Source: Octopus vulgaris (Eukaryota). From it: a stretch of 64,000 nucleotides of DNA. Every line of letters begins with the position of its first letter. The stretch's first letter is position 1. The position numbers and the translations under genes were made by a program. Positions 14,401 to 54,455 of the stretch are shown here, in pieces. The notes beneath the pieces are model-generated. The model worked only from the letters and a program-made list of their open reading frames with translations. It was not told the origin of the DNA and searched no databases. The stretch spans positions 58,404,001-58,468,000 of the forward strand of contig OX597822.1 of the NCBI GenBank assembly GCA_951406725.2, written 5' to 3'.

Positions 14401-15824
14401 TGGCACAAAGCAAAACAGCATTTCATCTAATCAATTAGGCTACTCAAACATTATTGTTAAAGCCATTTGTTTGTATTTCTCAAAGTGGCACATACCTGCT
14501 TGTTTCAGGTAGTTTGGATGCTAAAAATTAGTTCTCATTCCTTCTTTCACAATTCAACAGTTAAGTGATAAGAAGGGCATCCTGTCAATTTAAAGTGTTA
14601 CAGAAATGAATGGATTAAACCACTAACAAGAAGAGAACTGGCCATTAGTTTAGGCCTTGTTAATAACTTTACTTATAATACTTTCAGATAAAGCACCAAT
14701 ATTCTACTCTACTGCTTCACCTGGTTGAAAATAAATGCCACACCCACTTAATGGTCGAGTGATTAACGGGGTGGGGAGGTGCATTCACAGCAGGTGTGAA
14801 ACACTTTCTGCAACAATTGCACTTTGGTGAGCGAAATATAGTAGGTCATTTAGATGTTTTGTTTTTTGCTTAACTGATTTCCACTGCACTTTCGGCTTTA
14901 TCTAAGAGAATATTAGACGCACATACATAATGCTCATTCATAAAGATAAAGCATTAAAATTAAACTTGTAAAATTATACGCACATGTAGATTTGTTTGTG
15001 TATATATATAATCAACCAATCATAAATATAGACTTTATATCTGATAAATATTTATAAACACATTCAAAATACACGCACACACATAATACATATACACATA
15101 CATATATGCAGGTGTAAGAATAGCTATGTGTATGAATGCATGTGTTGCACACATAATCTATAAGACGGGGGAAATGTGCAACACTCAACATTTCAATTTT
15201 CACTAGATATAAGGAAAACATCGAAAATTTCAAACATTATACATTATTATTACATTTTAATAGTAAAGAAAAATAACGAAACGAAAACGATTATATATTA
15301 ACCTTTCAGCTTCCGTTTTTTACCTTCTCAAGACGAAAAAAAGGTGTCTACCTATTGTAAAGTACATTCATTACACAACATTATATTTTCTACAGAAATG
15401 GTTCATGTTTCAAATTCCCCCTACACATTCATATATGTACTATTCATTTCCACTGTTGTTAACTTTCGATTAAATATATATATATATGTATGTATATATA
15501 TATATAATGGTACATATACAGATAATGGTAAACGTGGACCAGAATCGATGTAAATGACATAATCTTCTAATAATTTAAACACTGTTCTACGAAAAGAAAA
15601 ACAACAGAAATTTAGAAAATTTTCGTAAACAAAGATAAAAATTTTAAGATTTTCTAGAACGGAAAATAGGTCCTTACTCTTTAAAATGAAAACAAAAGTC
15701 CTGATAAAAAGTGAGCGAAGGAAGATAGCAAAATAGAAAATGCTTGGTAGCACGTGGAGTAAAAGCTTCGCTAATCGATAGAAGAAAACAGGCCATGAGA
15801 GTCATTAGAATGGAAACAACTTAC

Positions 15825-15953
15825 CTGCATGGAATCAGCATTTATTATTTCGCCAGAAAATACTTTAGCAAGTTCAATTGCGAGTTTAGATTTACCAGTT
15901 CCAGTGGCACCTAATACTACAACTACAGGAAACCGACTACGTAGTGCAGCCAT
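15825..15953 (-). CDS. TRIT1: tRNA dimethylallyltransferase (isopentenyltransferase), coding exon 1
   Basis: Translates [43 protein letters not shown], with the P-loop GATGTGKS and DSMQ motif of MiaA/Mod5/TRIT1. ATG at 15953; ends in phase 0 at CAG|GTAAGT. Confidence 0.95.
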
Positions 15954-16480: not shown

Positions 16481-17022
16481 GAAGGCGCGTGGCTCAGTGG
16501 TTAGAGCGTCGAGGATGTGAGCTCGAATCCCTGACCGAGCTGCGTGTTGTGTTCTTGAGCAAGACGCTTTATTTCACGTTGCTCCAGTTCACTCAGCTGT
16601 AGAAATGAGTTGCAACGTCACAGGTGCCAAACTGTATCGGTGGTTGCCTTTCCCTTGGATAACACTGGTGGCGTGGAGAGGAGAGGCCGGTATGCATGGG
16701 CGACTGCTGGTCTTCCATAAACAACCTTGCCCGGACTTGTGCCTGGGAGGGTAACTTTCTAGGTGCAATCCCAGCCGTTCAAGAATTTGGACCTGGAGAT
16801 CTCCATTTCCAGCAACTTCGAGGGCCACCTCCCAGTGGTGTCGGGCGTCAACGAAGAGCCCTCGACTACAGCAAGACGACCAAAGTTGTTTTTTTTCCAA
16901 GGTCTGGGGTCTCCCGCCCCTAAGCCCTAGACCATCACCTAATCATCCTTACCAGTCTTGTTGCTTAACAATAACAACAAGGAGCAATCCCATGGTCTGT
17001 GTCGTGACCGAAGAGGGGGTCT
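16481..17022 (+). mobile_element. CORE-like SINE family C interrupted by a 207-bp insertion
   Basis: tRNA-like head GGCGCGTGGCTCAGTGGTTAGAGCG; matches the 11031 copy and resumes at about 16992 after the insert. Confidence 0.8.
16773..16979 (+). mobile_element. 5'-truncated LINE-like 3' end nested in SINE C
   Basis: 12-bp TSD AGG(T/A)GCAATCCC at 16761-16772 and 16980-16991; AACAATAACAACA tail. Confidence 0.7.
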
Positions 17023-17842
17023 CAGGTGTTTTGACAAAGATGGGCTGGCCGTTGTGGTTTGTACGGGACCTGAGAGAATCCAGCCAGTTGATTAAGGTAA
17101 TAGCTAACTTCAAAACCTATTACCGTTGAAGAACTTTTAAAAGAACATAAAAGCAATTGATGAAGCAACTAAACCTACAGATAGAGACTTCTAGAAAAAG
17201 TTCAACGTTATGGATGATGTTTGTCTATTAAAGATTTGATGTTGTTGGAACAAGACCAGTAGCATCGGCAAGAAAAGGATATAGCAACTACTTCTATTCC
17301 ATTTAGGTGGCGTTTTCTTTCTTGCACACTAGATCTAATGTCTCGTATAGCTTAAGGGCTCGCACTTCTAGAAGGTCAGTAAGGTTCTGTCAACAGTGAT
17401 CCTAATCGCGAATGTATTATAAAAACTACAAGGGGAATTCAAAATGAGCTCAGAAGTACATGAATGGAGCACACCGTAAAAGCCAGAATAGTTATTGTGC
17501 AACAGATAGGTGGGTGGATATCTCTAAATATGTGGAGACTGTGAATAGACGTATCAGGCAGAGATGTATTCCGAAGCAAAAGAAGCTACTCAAGTAAATA
17601 CATGAATGGATACTATAAAACAGGCAAGTATTAAAACATTCAATGCCAAGTTTCAGATAGCAATCATTATGAGAAATGACATTGATAATATTATTGTTTA
17701 TGAAAGTGTTGCATGTAATAGTGTTAAAATTGTTATAAATCTGTATATCAAGGTAGGTAAGATCATTTAAAAAAATGATGGAATTAATAGACATTGTGAT
17801 TTTATTGAACCAAATCTGTTAGAAACAGTTTAACTGTCTTTT

Positions 17843-18230
17843 GTAGTGGGATATAGACTGGTAATGGAGAATAAATATCACCGGATCACCATTTAGTAAA
17901 GAGTATTATGGATCATCAACGAAGAAACGATTAGATTCATTTCTCGGACTTGTTAATTTCTACGAAAGATTAACAAATTATCGCCGCTTGCATCACTTCG
18001 TAAACATGATGTTTCTATTTTCATGAGAAGTTCAACAACAAAGTTTGGGCATATAAAGCTGATGTTAATGCCAAAGTCAGTGGTAAGCATATATGATGCT
18101 ACGAAAGGAGTTACTTTAACTGATGCAATTGAAAATGCTATGATCAGGAATATTTTCGCAAGGAAGCCATCCTCTACTATAATTGCCACGAGCATGAACC
18201 ACTACTTGAACGAGTTACTCAAATATTGAA
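17843..18230 (+). pseudogene. Decayed Ty3/Gypsy pol (RT-RNase H junction)
   Basis: Cross-frame translation gives ISPDHHLVKSI, LDSFLGLVNFYERL and IYDATKGVTLTDAIE, resembling Gypsy LRSFLGLVNFY and TTDAS motifs. Confidence 0.65.
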
Positions 18231-18545
18231 AGGAAAGCCTAGGTAATGGTGTAGTATACTCGAAAAGTACGGCATTCTCTACTTGGCAAAAATTTTAATT
18301 CATCTCAGGTTATAGGCCACTAGAATTTATTGGGGGGGGGGGAAATTGTGGTTTACTGAGAGTAATATTTATTTGTATTTTAAGATGGGTTTCACAAATG
18401 ACAGCATTTGATTAACAGATATCTAATTTAATACAAGGCGGCGAACTGGCAGAGACGTCAGCATACTGGGCGAAATGCTTAATCCATTTGTCTGTCCTCG
18501 TTTGTCTCCTTTGTGTTTAGCCCCTTGTGAGTAGTAAAGAAATAG

Positions 18546-19330
18546 GATATCGACTCATTACTCGTTTTTCTAAAATGCACCATAAATGTTCCATAATATT
18601 GAGGTCTGGGGACTGTGGTGACCAGATAAGATGTTCAACTTCACTAGAATGTTCCGCGTACCACTCAGTAACAAATTTAGCTATGTGAATTGGTGCATTA
18701 TCATCCTGAAAGATTGCGTTTCCCTCCGGAAACAGTTCCGCATCTATAGGATGAATTTGATCAGATAAAATGCTTAAATAGTCTTGACTATTAATTCTAC
18801 CATGAAGGGAAACCATTAGTCTGGCGGATTTCCAAGATATAGCCGCGCCCCTCCCCCGCTCCAGATCATCACTGATCCTCCTCCATGTTTAACAGTTGGA
18901 AAAAGGTAGTCTGGGTCAAATGCTTCTTTTGGCTGTCTCGCCACGTATACTCGGCCGGTGGTCGGAAATAAGGTAAATGATGACTCGTCTGAGAATATAG
19001 CATTCTTCCACTGCTCTAGGGATCAATTCTGTAGGTTTTTACTGCACTCTAAACGGTTTGCAACGTTTGTTTTTGAAAGCAGTAGATTTCTGATTGCAAC
19101 CCTCCCCTGAAATCCGGTTTTGTGCCGCTCCCGGCGAACAATTTTTGTGGAAACTGGGTTCTCGATGTGGTCATTAAGCTCTGCAGTAATTTTGGGAGCT
19201 GTACTTTTGTGATCCTTTCTAACAATTCGCGTAAGAGTCCGATGGTCTCTATCTGAAAGTTTCGGCTTTCTTCCGGAGTTTTGTTTCGACAAGGAAGATG
19301 TTCCCTCTTTCTCAGAGGCTGTCATTACTG
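18546..19330 (-). mobile_element. Tc1-family transposase pseudogene
   Basis: SGRKPKLSDRD HTH linker, FSDES, IFQDDNAPIH and WSPQSPDLNIMEHLW (DD34E-type motifs); frameshifted; TIRs not identified. Confidence 0.9.
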
Positions 19331-19691
19331 GCTACACCATGTGAAGCATATTTGTAGAAAATTTCATTAAAAAATATCTATTTTACTGGAAGTTATGAGG
19401 AAACAGAATCGTGGGGGAAGGGGCACACATGAGTAGATTTGCCAAACTCCGCCAATTGGTTTCCCTTGTTGCATAATTATTTTTAGTTAATATTTCGTCC
19501 GCCGCTACATTCTGAGTTCAAATTCCGCCGAGGTCGACTTTGTCGTTCATCCTTTCGGGGTCGATAAATTAAGTACTAGCTGCGTACTGGGTCGATCTAA
19601 TCGACTGGCCTACCTCCCTAAAAAATGTGGGCCTTGTGCCTAGAGTAGAAAAAATTATTTTTAGTTAGATTTTGCTGCTTGCATTGGATAT

Positions 19692-20018
19692 ACACTGGTG
19701 AAAATAAATTTAAGACCGATGATAAAAGTTCTATTTCTTACAAAATATTTTGTTACTAACACTATACAAATTATTTTTATCTTTTACAACATATGCAGAA
19801 TTTATTTCTCTTTCGAATGATGCAGACAATAACTATTTTTATACAACTTGAAGAATTCTAATGCAAAATTAATATAGTTATTGTCTGCATCATTCGAAAG
19901 AGAAATAAATTCTGCATAAGGTGTAAAAGATAGAAATAATTTGTATGGTGTTAGTAACAAAATATTTTGTAAGAAATAGAACTTTTATCATCGGTCTTAA
20001 ATTTATTTTCGCCAGTGT
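19692..20018. mobile_element. Fold-back (palindromic) MITE with ~145-bp arms
   Basis: 19692-19836 is a near-perfect inverted repeat of 19874-20018 around a 37-bp spacer; ends CACTGG...CCAGTG. Confidence 0.8.
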
Positions 20019-20298
20019 GTTAACACTAAGGCGGTAAGCTGGCAAAATCATCACGCATTGGACAGTAAATATGCTTGGCGGTATTTCTTAGAGATCACTA
20101 CGTTCTCAATTCAAATCCTGCAGAGGTTAACGTTGCCTTCCATCCTTTCGGGATAGATAAAATAAAGTACTTAGTTAAGTACTGGAGTCAATGTAATAAA
20201 ATAACTGACCTTGTGCCAAAATTTGAAACAAATATGTTAACACTAACTTAACTACAGTTCTTATAAAACAAAGTGAGGACGCTCTAGGGGCCAGGTAC

Positions 20299-20347
20299 TC
20301 GCGACTGACGACGAGCCAAGTAGCTCGAAACTGAGTCAGTCTCACGA
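20299..20347 (+). ncRNA. Type I hammerhead ribozyme motif (minimal, palindromic stem III)
   Basis: TCGCGA-CTGACGA-C-GAGC caagta GCTC-GAAA-CTGA g TCAG-TC-TCACGA: both core boxes, 4-bp stem II, GUC triplet, 5/6-bp stem I. Confidence 0.75.
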
Positions 20348-21048
20348 TCCTGTTGTCTTCTAGAGGATGGTAGGAGTTCGCACTACCTGCTAGCAATATA
20401 TATTGTATATAAAGGGTGCGGCGACGCACCGAAAACCATCTGGCGGAGGATCTGTCTGGGGTTAAACAAGTAGTAACATGGAACAGCCACTTTGACGTGG
20501 CGAATGACTTTACTTGAGAGTGAAGACAGATTTATTTATTTGTTCTCTTTTTTTTTTCTGTCCCCTTTAAGAAAATAATTTAATTCCTTATTTCTTTACT
20601 TATTGACATGCTTTAATGTCTTTTAAAATACCTTTTTGATATAAGGTCATTTTTTTAGCAATGCCTAGTGGGCGGCATTCTTGGACAGGAAACTGCTGGC
20701 TTGAAGGTTGAGTAGATATTTGGTATGCAGGTCTTGGAATGTATTCCTTTCACTTACCCTTTCCGTATGAGTCCGTGTGTTCATGTAGGCATGTGTCTGT
20801 GGTGTGTGTATGACTCTGTGTGTGTGTGAGAGAGAGAGAGGGGGGGGAGGAAAAAGAAAGAAAGAGGAAGAGAAGCTTGTTCTGAACATTTAGCTTTTGT
20901 GTTTGTTGTTGATTTTATCTTTAATTCCCCTTATCTTAATTCCTCTTACTATCAATACCAATTCCCCACTATGCTATGTACTTTGTTGTCGCTGTTGTTG
21001 CTTAGAACCCCGTGGTTAAATCTGATCGTGAAGAACCAAGATGATGAA

Positions 21049-32502: not shown

Positions 32503-33022
32503 ATCCTCCAATGCGATGTTGAGCACTCATTCGCATTGTTCGACATTTACGTATGTGTGTGTGTGTATACATACACACTCAATTCTCTTTTTGCACGGTT
32601 TTGAAATAGCACAGTCCAACAAAAAGAACCGATTATTTTTTTTGTACTATTTTTTAAAAACTCAGTTTAAACATCTGTCCTTGTGTGACCACTGAATTTA
32701 TTGCAAGTGGCAAGTAAATGGTTAAGTTACATCAACCAATTTTAATTTACAAAACGCCGAAACTCTATATAACATGATTAAGTAACAATTTAGTGAAGTA
32801 AAATACGATCCAATCTATTTTTTTTCCATATAATGATCCTACACTTTGCGGTTAGGGCGGGACCTATTCACTGTACATACCTCTGGTTGCATGTAACCGC
32901 TCGATCAGACGCCACGCGGTGGCAGTCGTTAGCATCGGGTCTAATACGAAAGACATGTCGCGTGTTTCATTCTCTGCTGTATTTTTTTATTTGCGATCAT
33001 GATAGTGATAACCTACCCCAAA

Positions 33023-35650
33023 ATGTCGACTGATACATCTAAGAAAAATAAAAGAGCATCAATTTCTTTGGAGACCAAGATCAATATTTTGGATCGTCTT
33101 CGTAAGGGTGAAAGTGCAGCGTCCTTGGGTAGAGCTTTCTGCCTGATCGAAGCTACAATGAACGATCAAAAAGAGTGATGCTGCCATTAGAAGATCTGTA
33201 GCTTCTGGAACAAAATTATCTGCGAAGTCGTCGTCATATACAAGAGACATAATTCAAGAAAAAATGGAGAAAGCTTTAATAATATGGATAGAAGAAATCA
33301 AAAAAAAAAAAAAAGGATACCTGTATATGGTAAAACCATAAAACAGATGACATTACGATTTTACGTGAAGATTTTACGTCATCAAGTGCATTACATCTGT
33401 CTAGTCTGTCTAGTGATAAAAAGGAGAATGAATTTGCTGCAAGAACGAGATGGCTTACAAAATACCTAGAAAGACACGCACTACATAATATAAAAATGAG
33501 AGGTGAAATTTCATCGGCAGAAAGGACTGCTGCTGAAAAATTTCTTCCAGAACTAGTCAAAATAATTAAAGAAGGCGGTTACATTTCAGACTTAGTTTTG
33601 AACGCAGATGAAACTGGTCTCTTTTGGGAAAAAAATGCCAAATAGAACGAATACAGCAAAATCAGAAAAAAGTGCCAATGGTTTTAAGGCAGCTAAAGAC
33701 TGTGTAACTTTCTTGTTATGTAGCAGCTCTTCAGGAGATTGTTTGTTAAAACCATTATTAATTAATCGATCAGTTCGTCCGCATGCAATGAAAGGCGTAG
33801 ACTTAAGTAAAATACCAGTTCATTGGAGAGCCAATAAAATATCATGGATGACAGCAGAAATATTTACTGAATGGTTTAACAACTGCTTCGTTCCGAAAGT
33901 AAGAAGATATATGGAAGATAAAGGTCTGGAGACCAAGATCAATATTTTGGATTGTCTTCGTAAGGGCGAAAGTGCAGCGTCCTTGGGTAGAGCCTTCTGC
34001 CTGAACGAAGCTACGATGAGAACGATAAAAAGGAATGATGCTGCCATTAGAAGATCTGTAGCTTCTGGAACAAAATTATCTGCGAAGTCGTCGTCATATA
34101 CAAGAGACATAATTCAAGAAAAAATGGAGAAAGCTTTAATAATATGGATAGAAGAAAAAAAAAAAAAAAGGATACCTGTATATGGTAAAACCATAAAACA
34201 GATGACATTACGATTTTATGTGAAGATTTTACGTCATCAAGTGCATTACATCTGTCTAGTCTGTCTAGTGATAAAAAGGAGAATGAATTTGCTGCAAGAA
34301 CGAGATGGCTTACAAAATACCTAGAAAGACACGCACTACATAATATAAAAATGAGAGGTGAAATTTCATCGGCAGAAAGGACTGCTGCTGAAAAATTTCT
34401 TCCAGAACTAGTCAAAATAATTAAAGAAGGCGGTTACATTTCAGACTTAGTTTTGAACGCAGATGAAACTGGTCTCTTTTGAGAAAAAATGCCAACTAGA
34501 ACGAATACAGCAAAATCAGAAAAAAGTGCCAATGGTTTTAAGGCAGCTAAAGACTGTGTAACTTTCTTGTTATGTAGCAGCTCTTCAGGAGATTGTTTGT
34601 TAAAACCATTATTAATTAATCGATCAGTTCGTCCGCATGCAATGAAAGGCGTAGACTTAAGTAAAATACCAGTTCATTGGAGAGCCAATAAAATATCATG
34701 GATGACAGCAGAAATATTTACTGAATGGTTTAACAACTGCTTCGTTCCGAAAGTAAGAAGATATATGGAAGATAAAGGTCTTGAGTTTAAAGTCCTATTA
34801 CTTATAGACAATGCACCCGGTCATCTTGATTTGGAACACCTGAATGCAAAAGTCACCTAATACAACATCGCTAATTCAACCGCTTGATCAGGGTATAATT
34901 TCAAAATTCAAATCATATTATATCCAGCGAACATTTAGATGAAGTAGAAAAAGATGGTACATTTTCAATTATTCAAGCATGGAAAAAATTTACTACAATT
35001 AATGGTATTATATATGCTGCCATGGCTTTATCCAAATTAAAGCCGTCCACCCTAAATGCATGCCGGAGATCACTTTGGCCAGAATGTGTAAAGCCTAAAA
35101 TCTCGTTTCTAATATAAATACAAATGAATTACATTCTGATATCATCACTTTGTCACATCAGATTGACTGAGAAGGTTTTGAAGAATTAACAGTTGAAGAC
35201 ATTGCAGAATTAATAATCGACGAAGCTCCTAATGAAGAACAAATTGTAGAGAGTATTTCAGAGAATGTATGTGATTCCACGTTAGTGGAATCTCTTCTTC
35301 ATCATCACTACTATAAACTATCTGCAAATGTAATTCTAGAAGGCCTCCAAAATAGCCAATAAACTTGGAAATCATTTTCTTACAAATGACAACAATATTG
35401 AACGAGCTGTACAGTTCCAATGTGATTTGAAAATGATTATGGGACGTTATGAAGAATCATATAAAGAACAAACAAAAATAAAATCACAGCATCTGATAAA
35501 TGAATTCGTATTCAAAACCAGTGAAACAAAAGAAACACAAGATGTTAATTTTATTCAAGATACATATGAAGATATATTGCCATTAAATATTTCTATTGAC
35601 GAGAGTGATTTTGCACCACCGAAGAACAACAGAAAGCAGGCACGTTTACT
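33023..35650 (+). pseudogene. Tigger/pogo (CENP-B-like) transposase pseudogene
   Basis: MSTDTSKKNKRASISLETKINILDRLRKGES HTH start; LNADETGLF, LLLIDNAPGH and SLIQPLDQG catalytic motifs; frameshifts and stops. Confidence 0.9.
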
Positions 35651-38135: not shown

Positions 38136-38441
38136 CTATCTATACAATATGTTACATTACTCGGTAGTCAAGATAAAACTCTGAGTTTCAGATGCCGAAG
38201 TGGAAATCCACAACACCATCTCTTCGGTTATCTGGCTATTTGAAAACGTTATGGAAAAAATACCGTTAAATAAAGGGAAATTACTCTGTTATAACTCTGC
38301 TTGCCTGCGTACTTATACATCGCTCGCATTTTTCGTCATAAAAATTATGTAAAAATTATATAAAAATACATAAAAATATATATATAAAAAATATATAAAA
38401 ATATATAAATTCTTCTTGGGACATAACATAGAAAGCATGTT

Positions 38442-39260
38442 CTATCTGTTTTCTTTAGGGGACCAAAAACGTAACAGAAATTTAGTCACATGTGGGCATG
38501 ATCCGAAAAGCTCTGTCCTTGTATTTAGACATGTAGTAGGGTCTAAGCTGCTTTTCCAGATAAGCCATCTCTCCATGTCGCATAGACCGCACCTTCCGCT
38601 GCCGTTGGTATAGGGCTTACATCTGGCCAAAATCTTCCATTGTATGTTATAATCGACACCTTTATCTCTTAAAGACCAAATATGATTAGATAATTGTGTC
38701 GCTTTTCTTTTGTTCCAGTGCCTAAAGCTCAAAGTGTGGTTATTGAACCTGGCCTTGAAATTACCCTCTGTAAGGCCCACGTATTTCTTCGTCGAAACGG
38801 CGTCTTTAGTGGTTATAGAGTTTACGGTAGCTTCATATATGATGGTCTTGGACATGCAAGCTCCATTTAGCGGGCACAATTCTTTATTCCTGCATGAACA
38901 GCTGTTTTCTTCTTGTGTTTTTTGTATGTTATGTTTGATTATGTTTTTAAAATTGGTAGTTGAACTAAAACTATTTTTTAAATTGTGTCTATTGAAGAGT
39001 TTCCTATAAGTATGGTTAACTGGAAAATGTCTATCTATCAGTGCTAGGAAATATTTACCTATATTGAAGGCCACCTCGGGTGAGTAAGGGGGCGTAAACC
39101 AGATGACCTTCCTATTTCTATTATTCCTTTTCCTTACTGTTGGGCTAGTGATAGGTGTATATTTTATTTTATCGCTAAAACCACTATCTTTTAAAGCCTT
39201 ATTATAAACTGGGGCAACGCTATTGAAGATGTCCTCTGCCCAATGATTGAAACAAGTCAA
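38442..39260 (-). mobile_element. Penelope-like element, 5'-truncated ORF (RT thumb plus GIY-YIG endonuclease)
   Basis: VIWFTPPYS, CSCRNKELCPLNGAC, TIIYEATV...KYVGLTEGNFKARFNNH, CGLCDME and LNTRTELFGSCPH are typical of PLE C-termini. Confidence 0.9.
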
Positions 39261-40098
39261 AACATATTGGGGGGAAAAAAAAAGATGGATCTTTTAGATA
39301 ATTTAGTTCTAAGTACATTTTGTCTGCATAAAAGGTGGTATGGTATATCTGGATGGCTGGAATATTTTTGAACATAAGGAGACAAAAAATGAATTTAGCA
39401 CATCTTTATTATTAGTTACAATTGTTTTGGCACTATTCCGTTTCTAACGCCATTGCACATAAAAGATTTCATGTTAAAAAATATTTGCGAATGATTTACA
39501 TTAGAGTAGCACGTCACCAGACTGGCATCAAGCGGCCCTCTCTCCTATACTGTGAAAGAGTAAGTTGATTCGACTCGTTCTAAAAATCCAATCACTAAGT
39601 GAGAAGCGAGGCCACATAGAAGTAATGTTATTAATGGTGATTACATTCTCGCTAACAGATTTGATACAGAAACTTTTGAAATGTTAAATAAATAGCAATA
39701 AAACAGTTGAAGCTCTACATTTTTCTGATACAATCTCTCCATATATATTTTTTCTCAAGTTGTTTGTTTTTATCGTTTGATCTCTTGGTCAATTATTATT
39801 ATTATTATTTTATGTTTGACTTTTGCTTTACATTTGTACAAGTTGGCTCCAAGTCTCACCTAGAGACCTCAAGAGACAAGTTGGAAGTTCATGTTGGCAT
39901 TATGCCTAGGGTGCCATATATTTGGTTTTGTACATAGTGTTGTTCTAGAGAATGTTTAAGAAACCATAAGAAAGAGTATTCGAGCGGTAGAGGCAGTGCT
40001 GTTTTCTTTAAGTGCTCCACCCTTATTACAGCCCCTATTTGTTCCATGTACTTCTCAAGATTTTTACTCAATGTTCCCAGGGCTTCGACAATTATTGG

Positions 40099-52850: not shown

Positions 52851-54455
52851 CCGTGTTTCCTGGAAAATATAACCTAGCCAAAAAGGCATCAGCTTGTTAG
52901 CAAGACCATGTGATGTTTGCAAAATAAACCAACTACCGCAACTTGGCTAAAGTCCGCGTTGAGCGCGCATGCACGGGGCTGACTCCCTTAGCTTGACTCC
53001 ATTGTCCCCTAGGCAAGATGAGTGCAAAAAGAAAGAGTTATTTCGTGGAGTACAAGAAAGGAATCGTGGAAGAGTCACATAAGAATCTTACAGCTTTCTG
53101 TAAGGAGAAGAGTTTGGATCTCCGAATGGTTTGAAAATGGTGAACAGAGTACGATAATCTCAGCAGACAGGTGGATGAGGGAAGTGCTAAGAAGCACAAG
53201 TGTGTATCAGGTCGATAACCGTTATTTTCGGAGCTGGAAGATATCGCCTCGGGATGGATTGCTGACAGAAGAACAAAGGCTTTGGTTGTACGCAGGGCAG
53301 ATATTCAAGAATTTGCTTTTGCAATGGTACCACAGTTGGATATACTCCCAGAGATATTCAAAGCATCACCTCATTGGTTGGATAATTTCTTTCGGCGATA
53401 TGAACTCTCTTTCTCTAAGAAGATTGACAACACTGTTCAAGCTAGAGGATGCTGAAGTGATTCAACGTGCACTTGCATTCAAGTCCTTTGTTGATGGCAT
53501 CGACTTTTCTAAATACAATCTCCCCAGTATAATTGTTATGGATGAGACTGCAGTATTTGCGGTCCAAGGATCTAAAATGACATCAGTGGGTTACAAAAGT
53601 GCAAGAGTTACTTGTATTTTAGCAACACGTTTTGATGGAACAAAGGGCAAAAAAGAGAAAATAGAACAAGTTTCAGGCATTTATGTTCTTGAAATGGAAA
53701 AGACTTGATGCACACAAGCTGTTATAAGAAAATGGGCTGATTTAACTATGCCACTTGGTTCTCAAAGAGGTCTTTTAGTTTCGGATTCGGCCAGTACTCA
53801 TTGCACAAAAGATATGAAAACCTTCCTTTCTGAAAGAAGAATTGACCACATAACGATTCCCAAGGGAATTACTTCATATTTACAAATATTAGATCTTGTA
53901 ACAAACAATTCCTTTAAGGATTATTTGCGGAGGGAAGTGAATGGATATATCGAACATAGAATGGAGAGAAATCAGTGTGGAAACTTTGTCAAACCCAACT
54001 TCCAAGAAATTGTAAATTGGGTGAAGAATTCATGGAATAAAATTACCGACAGTTGCGTTGCCAATGCACTACGAGTAGGGCACTTGGACAAAAAGTGTAC
54101 ATTTAAGGAAAGTTATATTGTCAAACATGAGAGATTGGGGTCCATGATTCTACAGGAAATAGATTTGCAAGAAATTCAGTCTGAAGTTAGGGGTTTGATG
54201 ATTCATGACATTCCAGAAGAGGACAAAATGTTTGTACTTGACTAAAAACAATAAGCAAATAAGTAAACTTTTGATAACTAAAAACATGGGTTTCCTTTTT
54301 ACAGTTCTTTCCTTTTACACGAGGACATGAGACTTTTTTGTGTTTCTTGGATTTTTTCCACAAAAAATATAAGACATTCCCGAAAATAAGCCCTAGTGCG
54401 GTTTTTGGATGCAAAATTAATTATAAGACTGGGTCTTATTTTCGGGGAAACACGG
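52851..54455 (+). mobile_element. pogo-family DNA transposon, both ends present, defective
   Basis: TA TSDs; TIR CCGTGTTTCC(T/C)(G/C)GAAAAT. Transposase from ATG 53018 (MSAKRKSY) with IVMDETAV, LVSDSASTH and YLQILDL motifs; frameshifted. Confidence 0.9.

Follow-up and report, generated by a model that had tools for sequence, protein, structure and literature searches.

The window, a stretch of 64,000 nucleotides of Octopus vulgaris DNA (positions 58,404,001-58,468,000 of contig OX597822.1) analysed at its full length, is summarised in Table 1. A Pfam scan of 140 of its 240 long frames returned transposon domains and one isopentenyl-transferase exon only. The retrozyme copy described below lies 4.3 kb upstream of the first coding exon of a tRNA dimethylallyltransferase gene, on the opposite strand. 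Rfam microRNA matches at the AT-rich inverted repeat were rejected as products of the repeat, with scores far below gathering.

The insert itself is richer in GC (0.50) than its 240-nt flanks (0.35 and 0.32) and holds no ORF matching Pfam, as the initial annotation had described it. That annotation placed it at 20281..20518; a discrete insert of about 240 nt was retained, and its ends were reset by comparison with other copies, which makes the C at 20280 part of the element. The 10-mers flush with these ends, AAAGTGAGGA and AGAGTGAAGA, agree at 8 of 10 positions, a score reached by 26 of 4,000 random flank pairs, and are likely a target-site duplication. The 9-mer pair proposed earlier as either a target duplication or a terminal redundancy needs shifted ends and was reached by 49 of 4,000 random flank pairs; the former reading was kept for the flush 10-mers and the latter dropped, since neither 10-mer belongs to the repeat unit. 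No joint skipping 20280-20516, as expected of an empty allele, was found in contigs of four sequencing runs. The left junction was bridged by contigs in all four runs, which carry four organism codes, with 0-16 differences, indicating that the insertion is common to other organism codes. The orthologous insertion in run X18 carries G5>A and a second change in helix I (one contig, depth 5.4). G5 of the hammerhead core is needed for catalysis.

Contigs were also collected at 80% likeness from four small runs whose kind was unrecorded or guessed. These gave 6-20 contigs each, mostly from other copies, and no back-joint. As a lead only, noticed after the fact, a 343-nt contig of run X10, whose kind is unrecorded or guessed, enters from the left flank, covers window positions 20243-20341 with 0 differences and ends exactly at 20341 (depth 7.4). 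A contig of run X9, from the same study, continues 14 nt further to 20355 (depth 2.6), and contigs of the DNA runs X2 and X4 break at 20350. Neither X9 nor X10 covers 20529-20720; both belong to one study seen as contigs only.

Table 1. Features of the window, with positions counted from its first nucleotide
Feature	Position	Strand	Basis or remark
tRNA dimethylallyltransferase, first coding exon	15822-15953	-	100% identical to Octopus vulgaris record
Sequence resembling decayed coding sequence	16900-18320	+	many stops; no Pfam match in scanned frames
Tc1-type and pogo/Tigger-type DDE transposase remnants	18520-19331; 32945-34857; 53219-54242	-; +; +	
Long AT-rich inverted repeat	19751-19960		probably MITE-like or foldback element
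Left copy of likely 10-bp target-site duplication, AAAGTGAGGA	20270..20279	+	flush with element start
5'-truncated family A copy, about 0.65 unit, 237 nt	20280..20516	+	comparison with other copies
Extended type I hammerhead domain	20282..20365	+	folding, copy alignment, HH9 alignment
Outer helices of hammerhead domain	20282-20287/20360-20365 and 20292-20295/20349-20352	+	folding, copy alignment
UAC bulge	20296-20298	+	HH9 alignment
Hammerhead core overall	20299..20347	+	sequence, HH9 alignment, pair probabilities
Helix I, TCGCGA/TCACGA, 6 pairs	20299-20304/20342-20347	+	C.A mismatch at 20302/20344
Conserved box CTGACGA (CUGACGA)	20305-20311	+	sequence check
Extra C	20312	+	U instead in 44/55 family A copies
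Helix II, GAGC/GCTC, 4 pairs, CAAGUA loop	20313-20326	+	sequence check, HH9 alignment
GAAA	20327-20330	+	sequence check
Near-palindromic helix III, ACTGA-G-TCAGT	20330-20340	+	sequence check
Predicted self-cleavage site, after C17 of GUC	20341..20342	+	hammerhead consensus
Main 3' end of family A (E1)	20495..20516	+	175 nt downstream of cut site; inferred start of reverse transcription
Right copy of likely 10-bp target-site duplication, AGAGTGAAGA	20517..20526	+	match to left copy
Atypical hammerhead-like motif, 3' region of young Penelope family	~38170-38225	-	approximate coordinates
Penelope fragment	38445-39293		very young family

The hammerhead of the window copy

The sequence carries every part of the hammerhead named in the initial annotation at the position given there, including the extra residue after A9, which is C 20312. 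The conserved core (CUGANGA, GAAA and UH) is arranged around three helices with an open helix I, none of the 11 invariant core letters is missing, and the GUC triplet is present. Thirteen matches to CTGANGA..GAAA occur in the 64-kb window, and the one beginning at 20305 was the sole one examined as a full hammerhead. The Rfam model HH9 aligned with 20286-20366 over model positions 1-77, the whole of the model, at 22.9 bits (E 7.6e-4), which does not reach its gathering score of 52. In this alignment the extra C is an insertion, the UAC bulge and the CAAGUA loop II are both matched, and the canonical 6-bp helix I, the 4-bp helix II and the residues of the loop 1-loop 2 contact are present. The same spacing and loops recur in the sister families described below. 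Canonical metazoan type I hammerheads have 6 pairs in helix I and 4 in helix II, against 4-5 and 7-8 in the minimal Penelope form (PMC4209133). Helix I of the window motif has 6 pairs and is extended by a UAC bulge and two additional helices, and helix II has 4 pairs; judged on sequence, the motif is of canonical type I build, and the earlier description of it as a minimal hammerhead was abandoned.

Folding of the window copy gave pair probabilities of 0.92-1.0 in the hammerhead domain, and 88-90% of the outer-helix cells are paired in an alignment of 55 family A copies. The folding z-score of the whole insert was modest (-2.2). In the predicted fold of the window copy, 20303-20309 of the core pairs with 20335-20341 and helix III is not formed; a fold compatible with cleavage lies 10.0 kcal/mol higher, compared to a median of 6.9 kcal/mol for 31 core-intact copies. 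Since fold models ignore tertiary contacts, this trapping of the core lowers the odds that the window copy is active without excluding it; if read through on the + strand, the window copy might cut weakly. For pairing between two helix III arms the folding model gives -13.2 kcal/mol.

A family of closed units and its younger sisters

A search of the 2.80-Gb Octopus vulgaris genome returned 798 first-look candidates, pointing to hundreds of dispersed copies of what we call family A; 40 of these were scored and gave 50 matches, the non-self ones at 75-88%. Other copies continue past both ends of the insert, and the sequence that follows the 3' end returns to the 5' start. When a query was laid across this end-to-start join, 40 of the 47 matches listed spanned it (self included). 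The period of the unit was 359.5 nt (median of 22 measurements). The family A unit is non-coding, closes on itself and is repeated head-to-tail, properties of the family and not of the window copy. A closed unit of ~360 nt implies that the insert, taken at first for a monomer, is a 5'-truncated fragment of ~0.65 unit with one ribozyme.

Across 73 distinct loci, 33 of 120 unit runs were longer than one unit, and units that share a locus were 79% alike, as between unrelated copies. Two hammerheads in tandem were present in only 2 of the 73 loci, with both pairs damaged (L064 is a two-hammerhead locus of family A), and no source array for family A was found among these loci. The window copy, having a single ribozyme, cannot release a monomer or circle, and it has one of the two complete hammerheads by which an active element has been defined (10.64898/2026.07.22.740005). 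The 41 near-full copies had a mean likeness of 78% (maximum 88%) and differed by 13% from the commonest letter of each column, a value that includes CpG decay and subfamily differences; the window copy differed by 9%. Copies that are ~78% alike make the family an old one. On a published scale in which a distance of 0.12 corresponds to about 33 million years (PMC13282606), its age would be roughly 30 million years.

The hammerhead core was intact in 22 of 46 unselected copies. We estimate roughly 530 hammerhead-bearing family A copies, a figure extrapolated from column retention and the 19 exact matches to a pattern that itself matched 0 of the 46 unselected rows. The tRNA-like head of a tRNA-derived SINE was not detected in family A, either by ARAGORN (10 loci, 0 genes) or by an Rfam tRNA search of 6 loci, although a heavily decayed head could escape both; nor was a poly(A) seen.

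A canonical-spacing hammerhead pattern gave 1,255 raw matches genome-wide (overlaps counted twice), compared to 5 for a reversed control, and led to sister families whose units repeat every 351 and 354 nt (20 loci retrieved). Family B has 2,904 candidates at 87-94% identity and three-unit arrays, and two consecutive complete hammerheads occur in it, for example at L135. Outside the ribozyme, the family A profile matched family C (E 2e-5 to 4e-5). The loci of family B (L112, L130-L154) and family C (L115-L118, L122), and also L123, are younger than family A, and sister arrays reach three units at L131 and L149. More decayed hammerheads of canonical type at L119-L121 and L124-L128 form two apparent groups with related flanks and no tandems seen; these single copies possibly represent older families.

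The sister families allowed covariation to be assessed at two levels. In a comparison of five family representatives, pairing holds in 61 of 65 cells and both sides change at all 13 pair positions, a result reached by 0 of 20,000 shuffles; the sequences counted are related, and the length of helix III was set to suit helix I. All four sister representatives have a perfectly palindromic helix III. Such compensatory change between families suggests that the ribozyme has been under selection in the lineage. Within family A no covariation was found (its score was reached by 145 of 500 shuffles), which is expected if copies decay after insertion; covariation was thus seen between families only. N7 is the single core column with a common second letter (41%). 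An apparent excess of polymorphism at free positions, strong in 55 rows, was no longer significant (Fisher p 0.14) when the query and 8 core-picked rows were removed.

Family A shows the sequence-level features of a retrozyme-like mobile RNA that the initial annotation had proposed, namely its unit, its hammerhead and its dispersal. Non-LTR retrozyme units are described as about 170-400 nt, non-coding and head-to-tail; like them, family A has no LTR parts and no Pfam match, and the insert has its likely 10-bp target duplication. We are highly confident that the insert is a fragment of a retrozyme family, and family A is likely a cephalopod member of the non-LTR retrozymes, for which circles are predicted by analogy.

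Insertion footprints and the mobilising machinery

The ends of the copies were strongly asymmetric. The 3' ends fell at E1 in 49 of 120 runs and at a second site, E2, ~55 nt further, in 31 of 120 (73 loci), and the 5' ends were ragged and scattered. Contact with a microsatellite was seen at 52 of the 80 E1/E2 ends; the remaining 3' ends touched one in 12 of 40 cases and the 5' ends in 31 of 120. Head-to-head inverted pairs were present in 28 of the 73 loci. As most loci were chosen as best matches, lengths in this set are biased upward, so the reverse-transcription template was examined in 30 matches selected solely by the 99 nt before E1 and free of such bias (two row pairs share loci). Half of these (15) extend across the cut site, 13 end before reaching it and another 2 terminate no more than 10 nt away; 3 of the 30 exceed one unit. 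That half of the copies cross the cut site indicates that reverse transcription neither starts at the cut end of a linear monomer nor stops there. Circular RNA or a multimer left uncut would likely have served as template, the circle being somewhat the more probable of the two.

Penelope insertions are described as truncated at the 5' end, partly tandem, biased towards microsatellites and provided with an inverted 5' copy and, at one end only, a tail of 30-40 nt (PMC8557442). Family A bears marks of this type, with a tail of ~55 nt compared to the 30-40 nt described there. In a young Penelope family of the same genome, inspected by eye, the 3' ends also lie on (TA)n, with 9 short, 20 ~70 nt longer and 1 interrupted (30 in total). 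Linkage of 3' ends to microsatellites and inversion at the 5' end are not confined to Penelope, as some LINEs show them too. The combination of fixed 3' ends, ragged 5' ends, inversions and microsatellite bias nevertheless makes mobilisation by Penelope, as first suggested, likely, and from these footprints we hold with good confidence that family A was inserted by Penelope-type machinery.

The Penelope copies at hand were then considered as partners. The fragment in the window, which the initial annotation placed at 38442-39260 and named as a possible source of the machinery, belongs to a family with 21,745 candidates at 99% identity. Its very young age, its own unrelated hammerhead-like motif and its lack of sequence likeness to the unit make it a neighbour and not a shown partner. 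This young family has open frames of up to 717 codons, and the motif in its 3' region, also seen at L080-L109, has CCGAAGA for CUGANGA, a long helix II, a palindromic helix III and UU at the cut triplet. A second Penelope family, sampled from L020, also bears its own hammerhead-like motif with a long helix II. The unit profile matched none of 59 independent loci of the two families; the one match among 60 Penelope loci was L020 itself. At that locus a family A copy terminates in (TA)n, and immediately beyond this begins a like-oriented, 5'-truncated Penelope copy of the second family (L020:1303-3180), likely a later insertion into the microsatellite. This genome has been reported to hold 31 recently active Penelope-like families (PMC13282606).

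We propose that a non-LTR retrozyme gave rise to the insert, now an old copy lacking its 5' part, and that a Penelope reverse transcriptase and endonuclease, acting in trans, probably wrote it into the genome. A source array of at least two units would have been transcribed and its hammerheads would have cut the transcript into ~360-nt monomers, aided by pairing of two palindromic helix III arms. Circularisation of the monomers by a host ligase would follow, a step modelled on the retrozymes of coral, mussel and axolotl (PMC7229834). The Penelope protein would nick the target and start cDNA at a constant point within the unit, lying 175 or ~230 nt 3' of the cut; synthesis would run backwards through the cut site, a step that needs a circle or uncut multimer, and stop at random. 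For the window copy it would have covered 237 nt, the last 62 of them beyond the cut, and given the 10-bp duplication, and the copy would have decayed neutrally since. Taken across the families, these observations raise a more speculative and on balance doubtful possibility, that an octopus clan of 351-362-nt circular RNA parasites, other than fragments of Penelope pseudo-LTRs (pLTRs), recruits the Penelope protein in trans through an internal signal, with reverse transcription running round the circle from 175-230 nt downstream of the cut.

Other readings of the insert assign its movement, or its presence, to a different agent. If family A were the remnant of an old autonomous Penelope, its hammerhead part of a pLTR and its tandems pLTR partial tandems, the Penelope-like character of all its insertion marks would follow; 24 of 57 Xenopus retrozyme families resemble known elements, mostly Penelope pLTRs (10.64898/2026.07.22.740005), and the Penelope sample here consists of two families. 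However, the unit closes on itself and leaves no room for an ORF, and the 73 loci yielded no consistent join between it and a Penelope ORF (RT/GIY-YIG). Penelope protein matches occur in 4 of these loci, with no shared distance, strand or geometry, and those at L009 and L020 end in hammerhead-bearing 3' regions of their own. The homologues lie outside Penelope pLTRs in every locus examined. Metazoan pLTR hammerheads have 7-8 pairs in helix II and a short helix I (PMC4209133), compared to 4 and 6 here. We regard this reading as unlikely, while family A may have its ancestry in a Penelope pLTR. Movement of the unit by a LINE, in the manner of a SINE, is quite unlikely: target-primed insertion would also account for constant 3' ends, truncated 5' ends and a duplication of ~10 bp, and several LINE clades are active in Octopus vulgaris (PMC13282606), but the tRNA and poly(A) expected of such a unit were not found in the loci searched, the 3' end lies inside a closed unit, the two ends ~55 nt apart mirror those of a Penelope family of the same genome, and inversions are frequent.

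That the units lie head-to-tail would also suit satellite DNA spread through excised and reinserted DNA circles, with the hammerhead as a passenger. This is the least probable of the readings, and extremely so, because the strong polarity of the ends largely refutes it, long homogenised arrays are absent and the ribozyme shows compensatory change between families. A last reading concerns the window copy alone, which would have been retained for its ribozyme activity, terminating a + strand transcript divergent from the tRNA dimethylallyltransferase promoter. The promoter lies 4.3 kb to the left of the ribozyme and, the first exon being on the - strand, divergent transcription would yield the ribozyme in sense orientation, with its core letters and GUC intact. 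Yet the core is equally intact in nearly half of the unselected copies, helix I has a C.A mismatch, the core is trapped against the 3' arm of helix III and the X18 orthologue has lost G5, making retention for function very improbable. The reading that we prefer, a truncated retrozyme copy inserted by Penelope proteins, treats the single locus as a dead fragment and places the significance in the family, whose hundreds of dispersed copies record where cDNA started and ended, in a two-ended pattern like that of an active Penelope family.

Comparison with known retrozymes and hammerheads

No literature report of a cephalopod retrozyme was found, although subscription papers, Repbase or supplements may hold one, and the main text of PMC13282606 contains 0 occurrences of 'ribozyme' or 'retrozyme'. 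The survey of Li, Clavereau and Pollet (2026; 10.64898/2026.07.22.740005) covers 35 genomes, of which the four invertebrates are three insects and one anthozoan. Family A would extend retrozymes to cephalopods. Penelope has been named as a strong candidate for the retrozyme mover, and no more, by Cervera and de la Peña (2020; PMC7229834). The footprints described here, together with intact substrates in the younger sister families, which are better suited than the window copy, make the question of which enzyme moves animal retrozymes testable. If a clan of circles recruiting in trans is real, the copy ends would be the first direct footprint of animal retrozyme insertion and would name its cis signal.

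Family A resembles the 350-390-bp retrozymes of Mytilus galloprovincialis in its non-coding, head-to-tail ~360-nt unit with a canonical type I hammerhead, and metazoan non-LTR retrozymes at large in having no LTR parts, a target duplication of >4 bp and a genome that also holds autonomous Penelope elements (PMC7229834). Unlike the Mytilus elements as described there, it is old and consists of dispersed fragments mostly of one unit or less in place of long arrays, and the window copy has a GC content of ~50%, an extra residue after A9 and an 11-nt helix III. Retrozymes described to date mostly form longer arrays than the family A loci.

Vertebrate non-LTR retrozymes have been presented as non-autonomous Penelope derivatives (10.64898/2026.07.22.740005). 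Family A shares with them copies in the form of monomers, dimers and short multimers and an inferred mobilisation by Penelope. The evidence differs: co-occurrence and pLTR likeness there, the shape of the insertions here, with no pLTR likeness in two Penelope families. By the definition of active and full-length elements used in that study, the window copy falls outside.

Among hammerheads, the window motif shares with the minimal ribozymes of Penelope pLTRs (PMC4209133) the type I topology, an unpaired residue on the 5' side of helix II, a palindromic helix III and a Penelope-type insertion pattern. It differs from them in helix I (6 pairs and a bulge compared to 4-5 pairs) and helix II (4 pairs compared to 7-8), and family A has no attached ORF. 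Members of HH9 (RF02275) are described as conserved intronic single copies in amniotes (PMC6155905). The window hammerhead is like this family in aligning with the whole model and in its UAC bulge and CAA..A loop II, and unlike it in score, as the best other family A copy tested reached 31.1 bits, compared to 22.9 for the window copy and the gathering score of 52.
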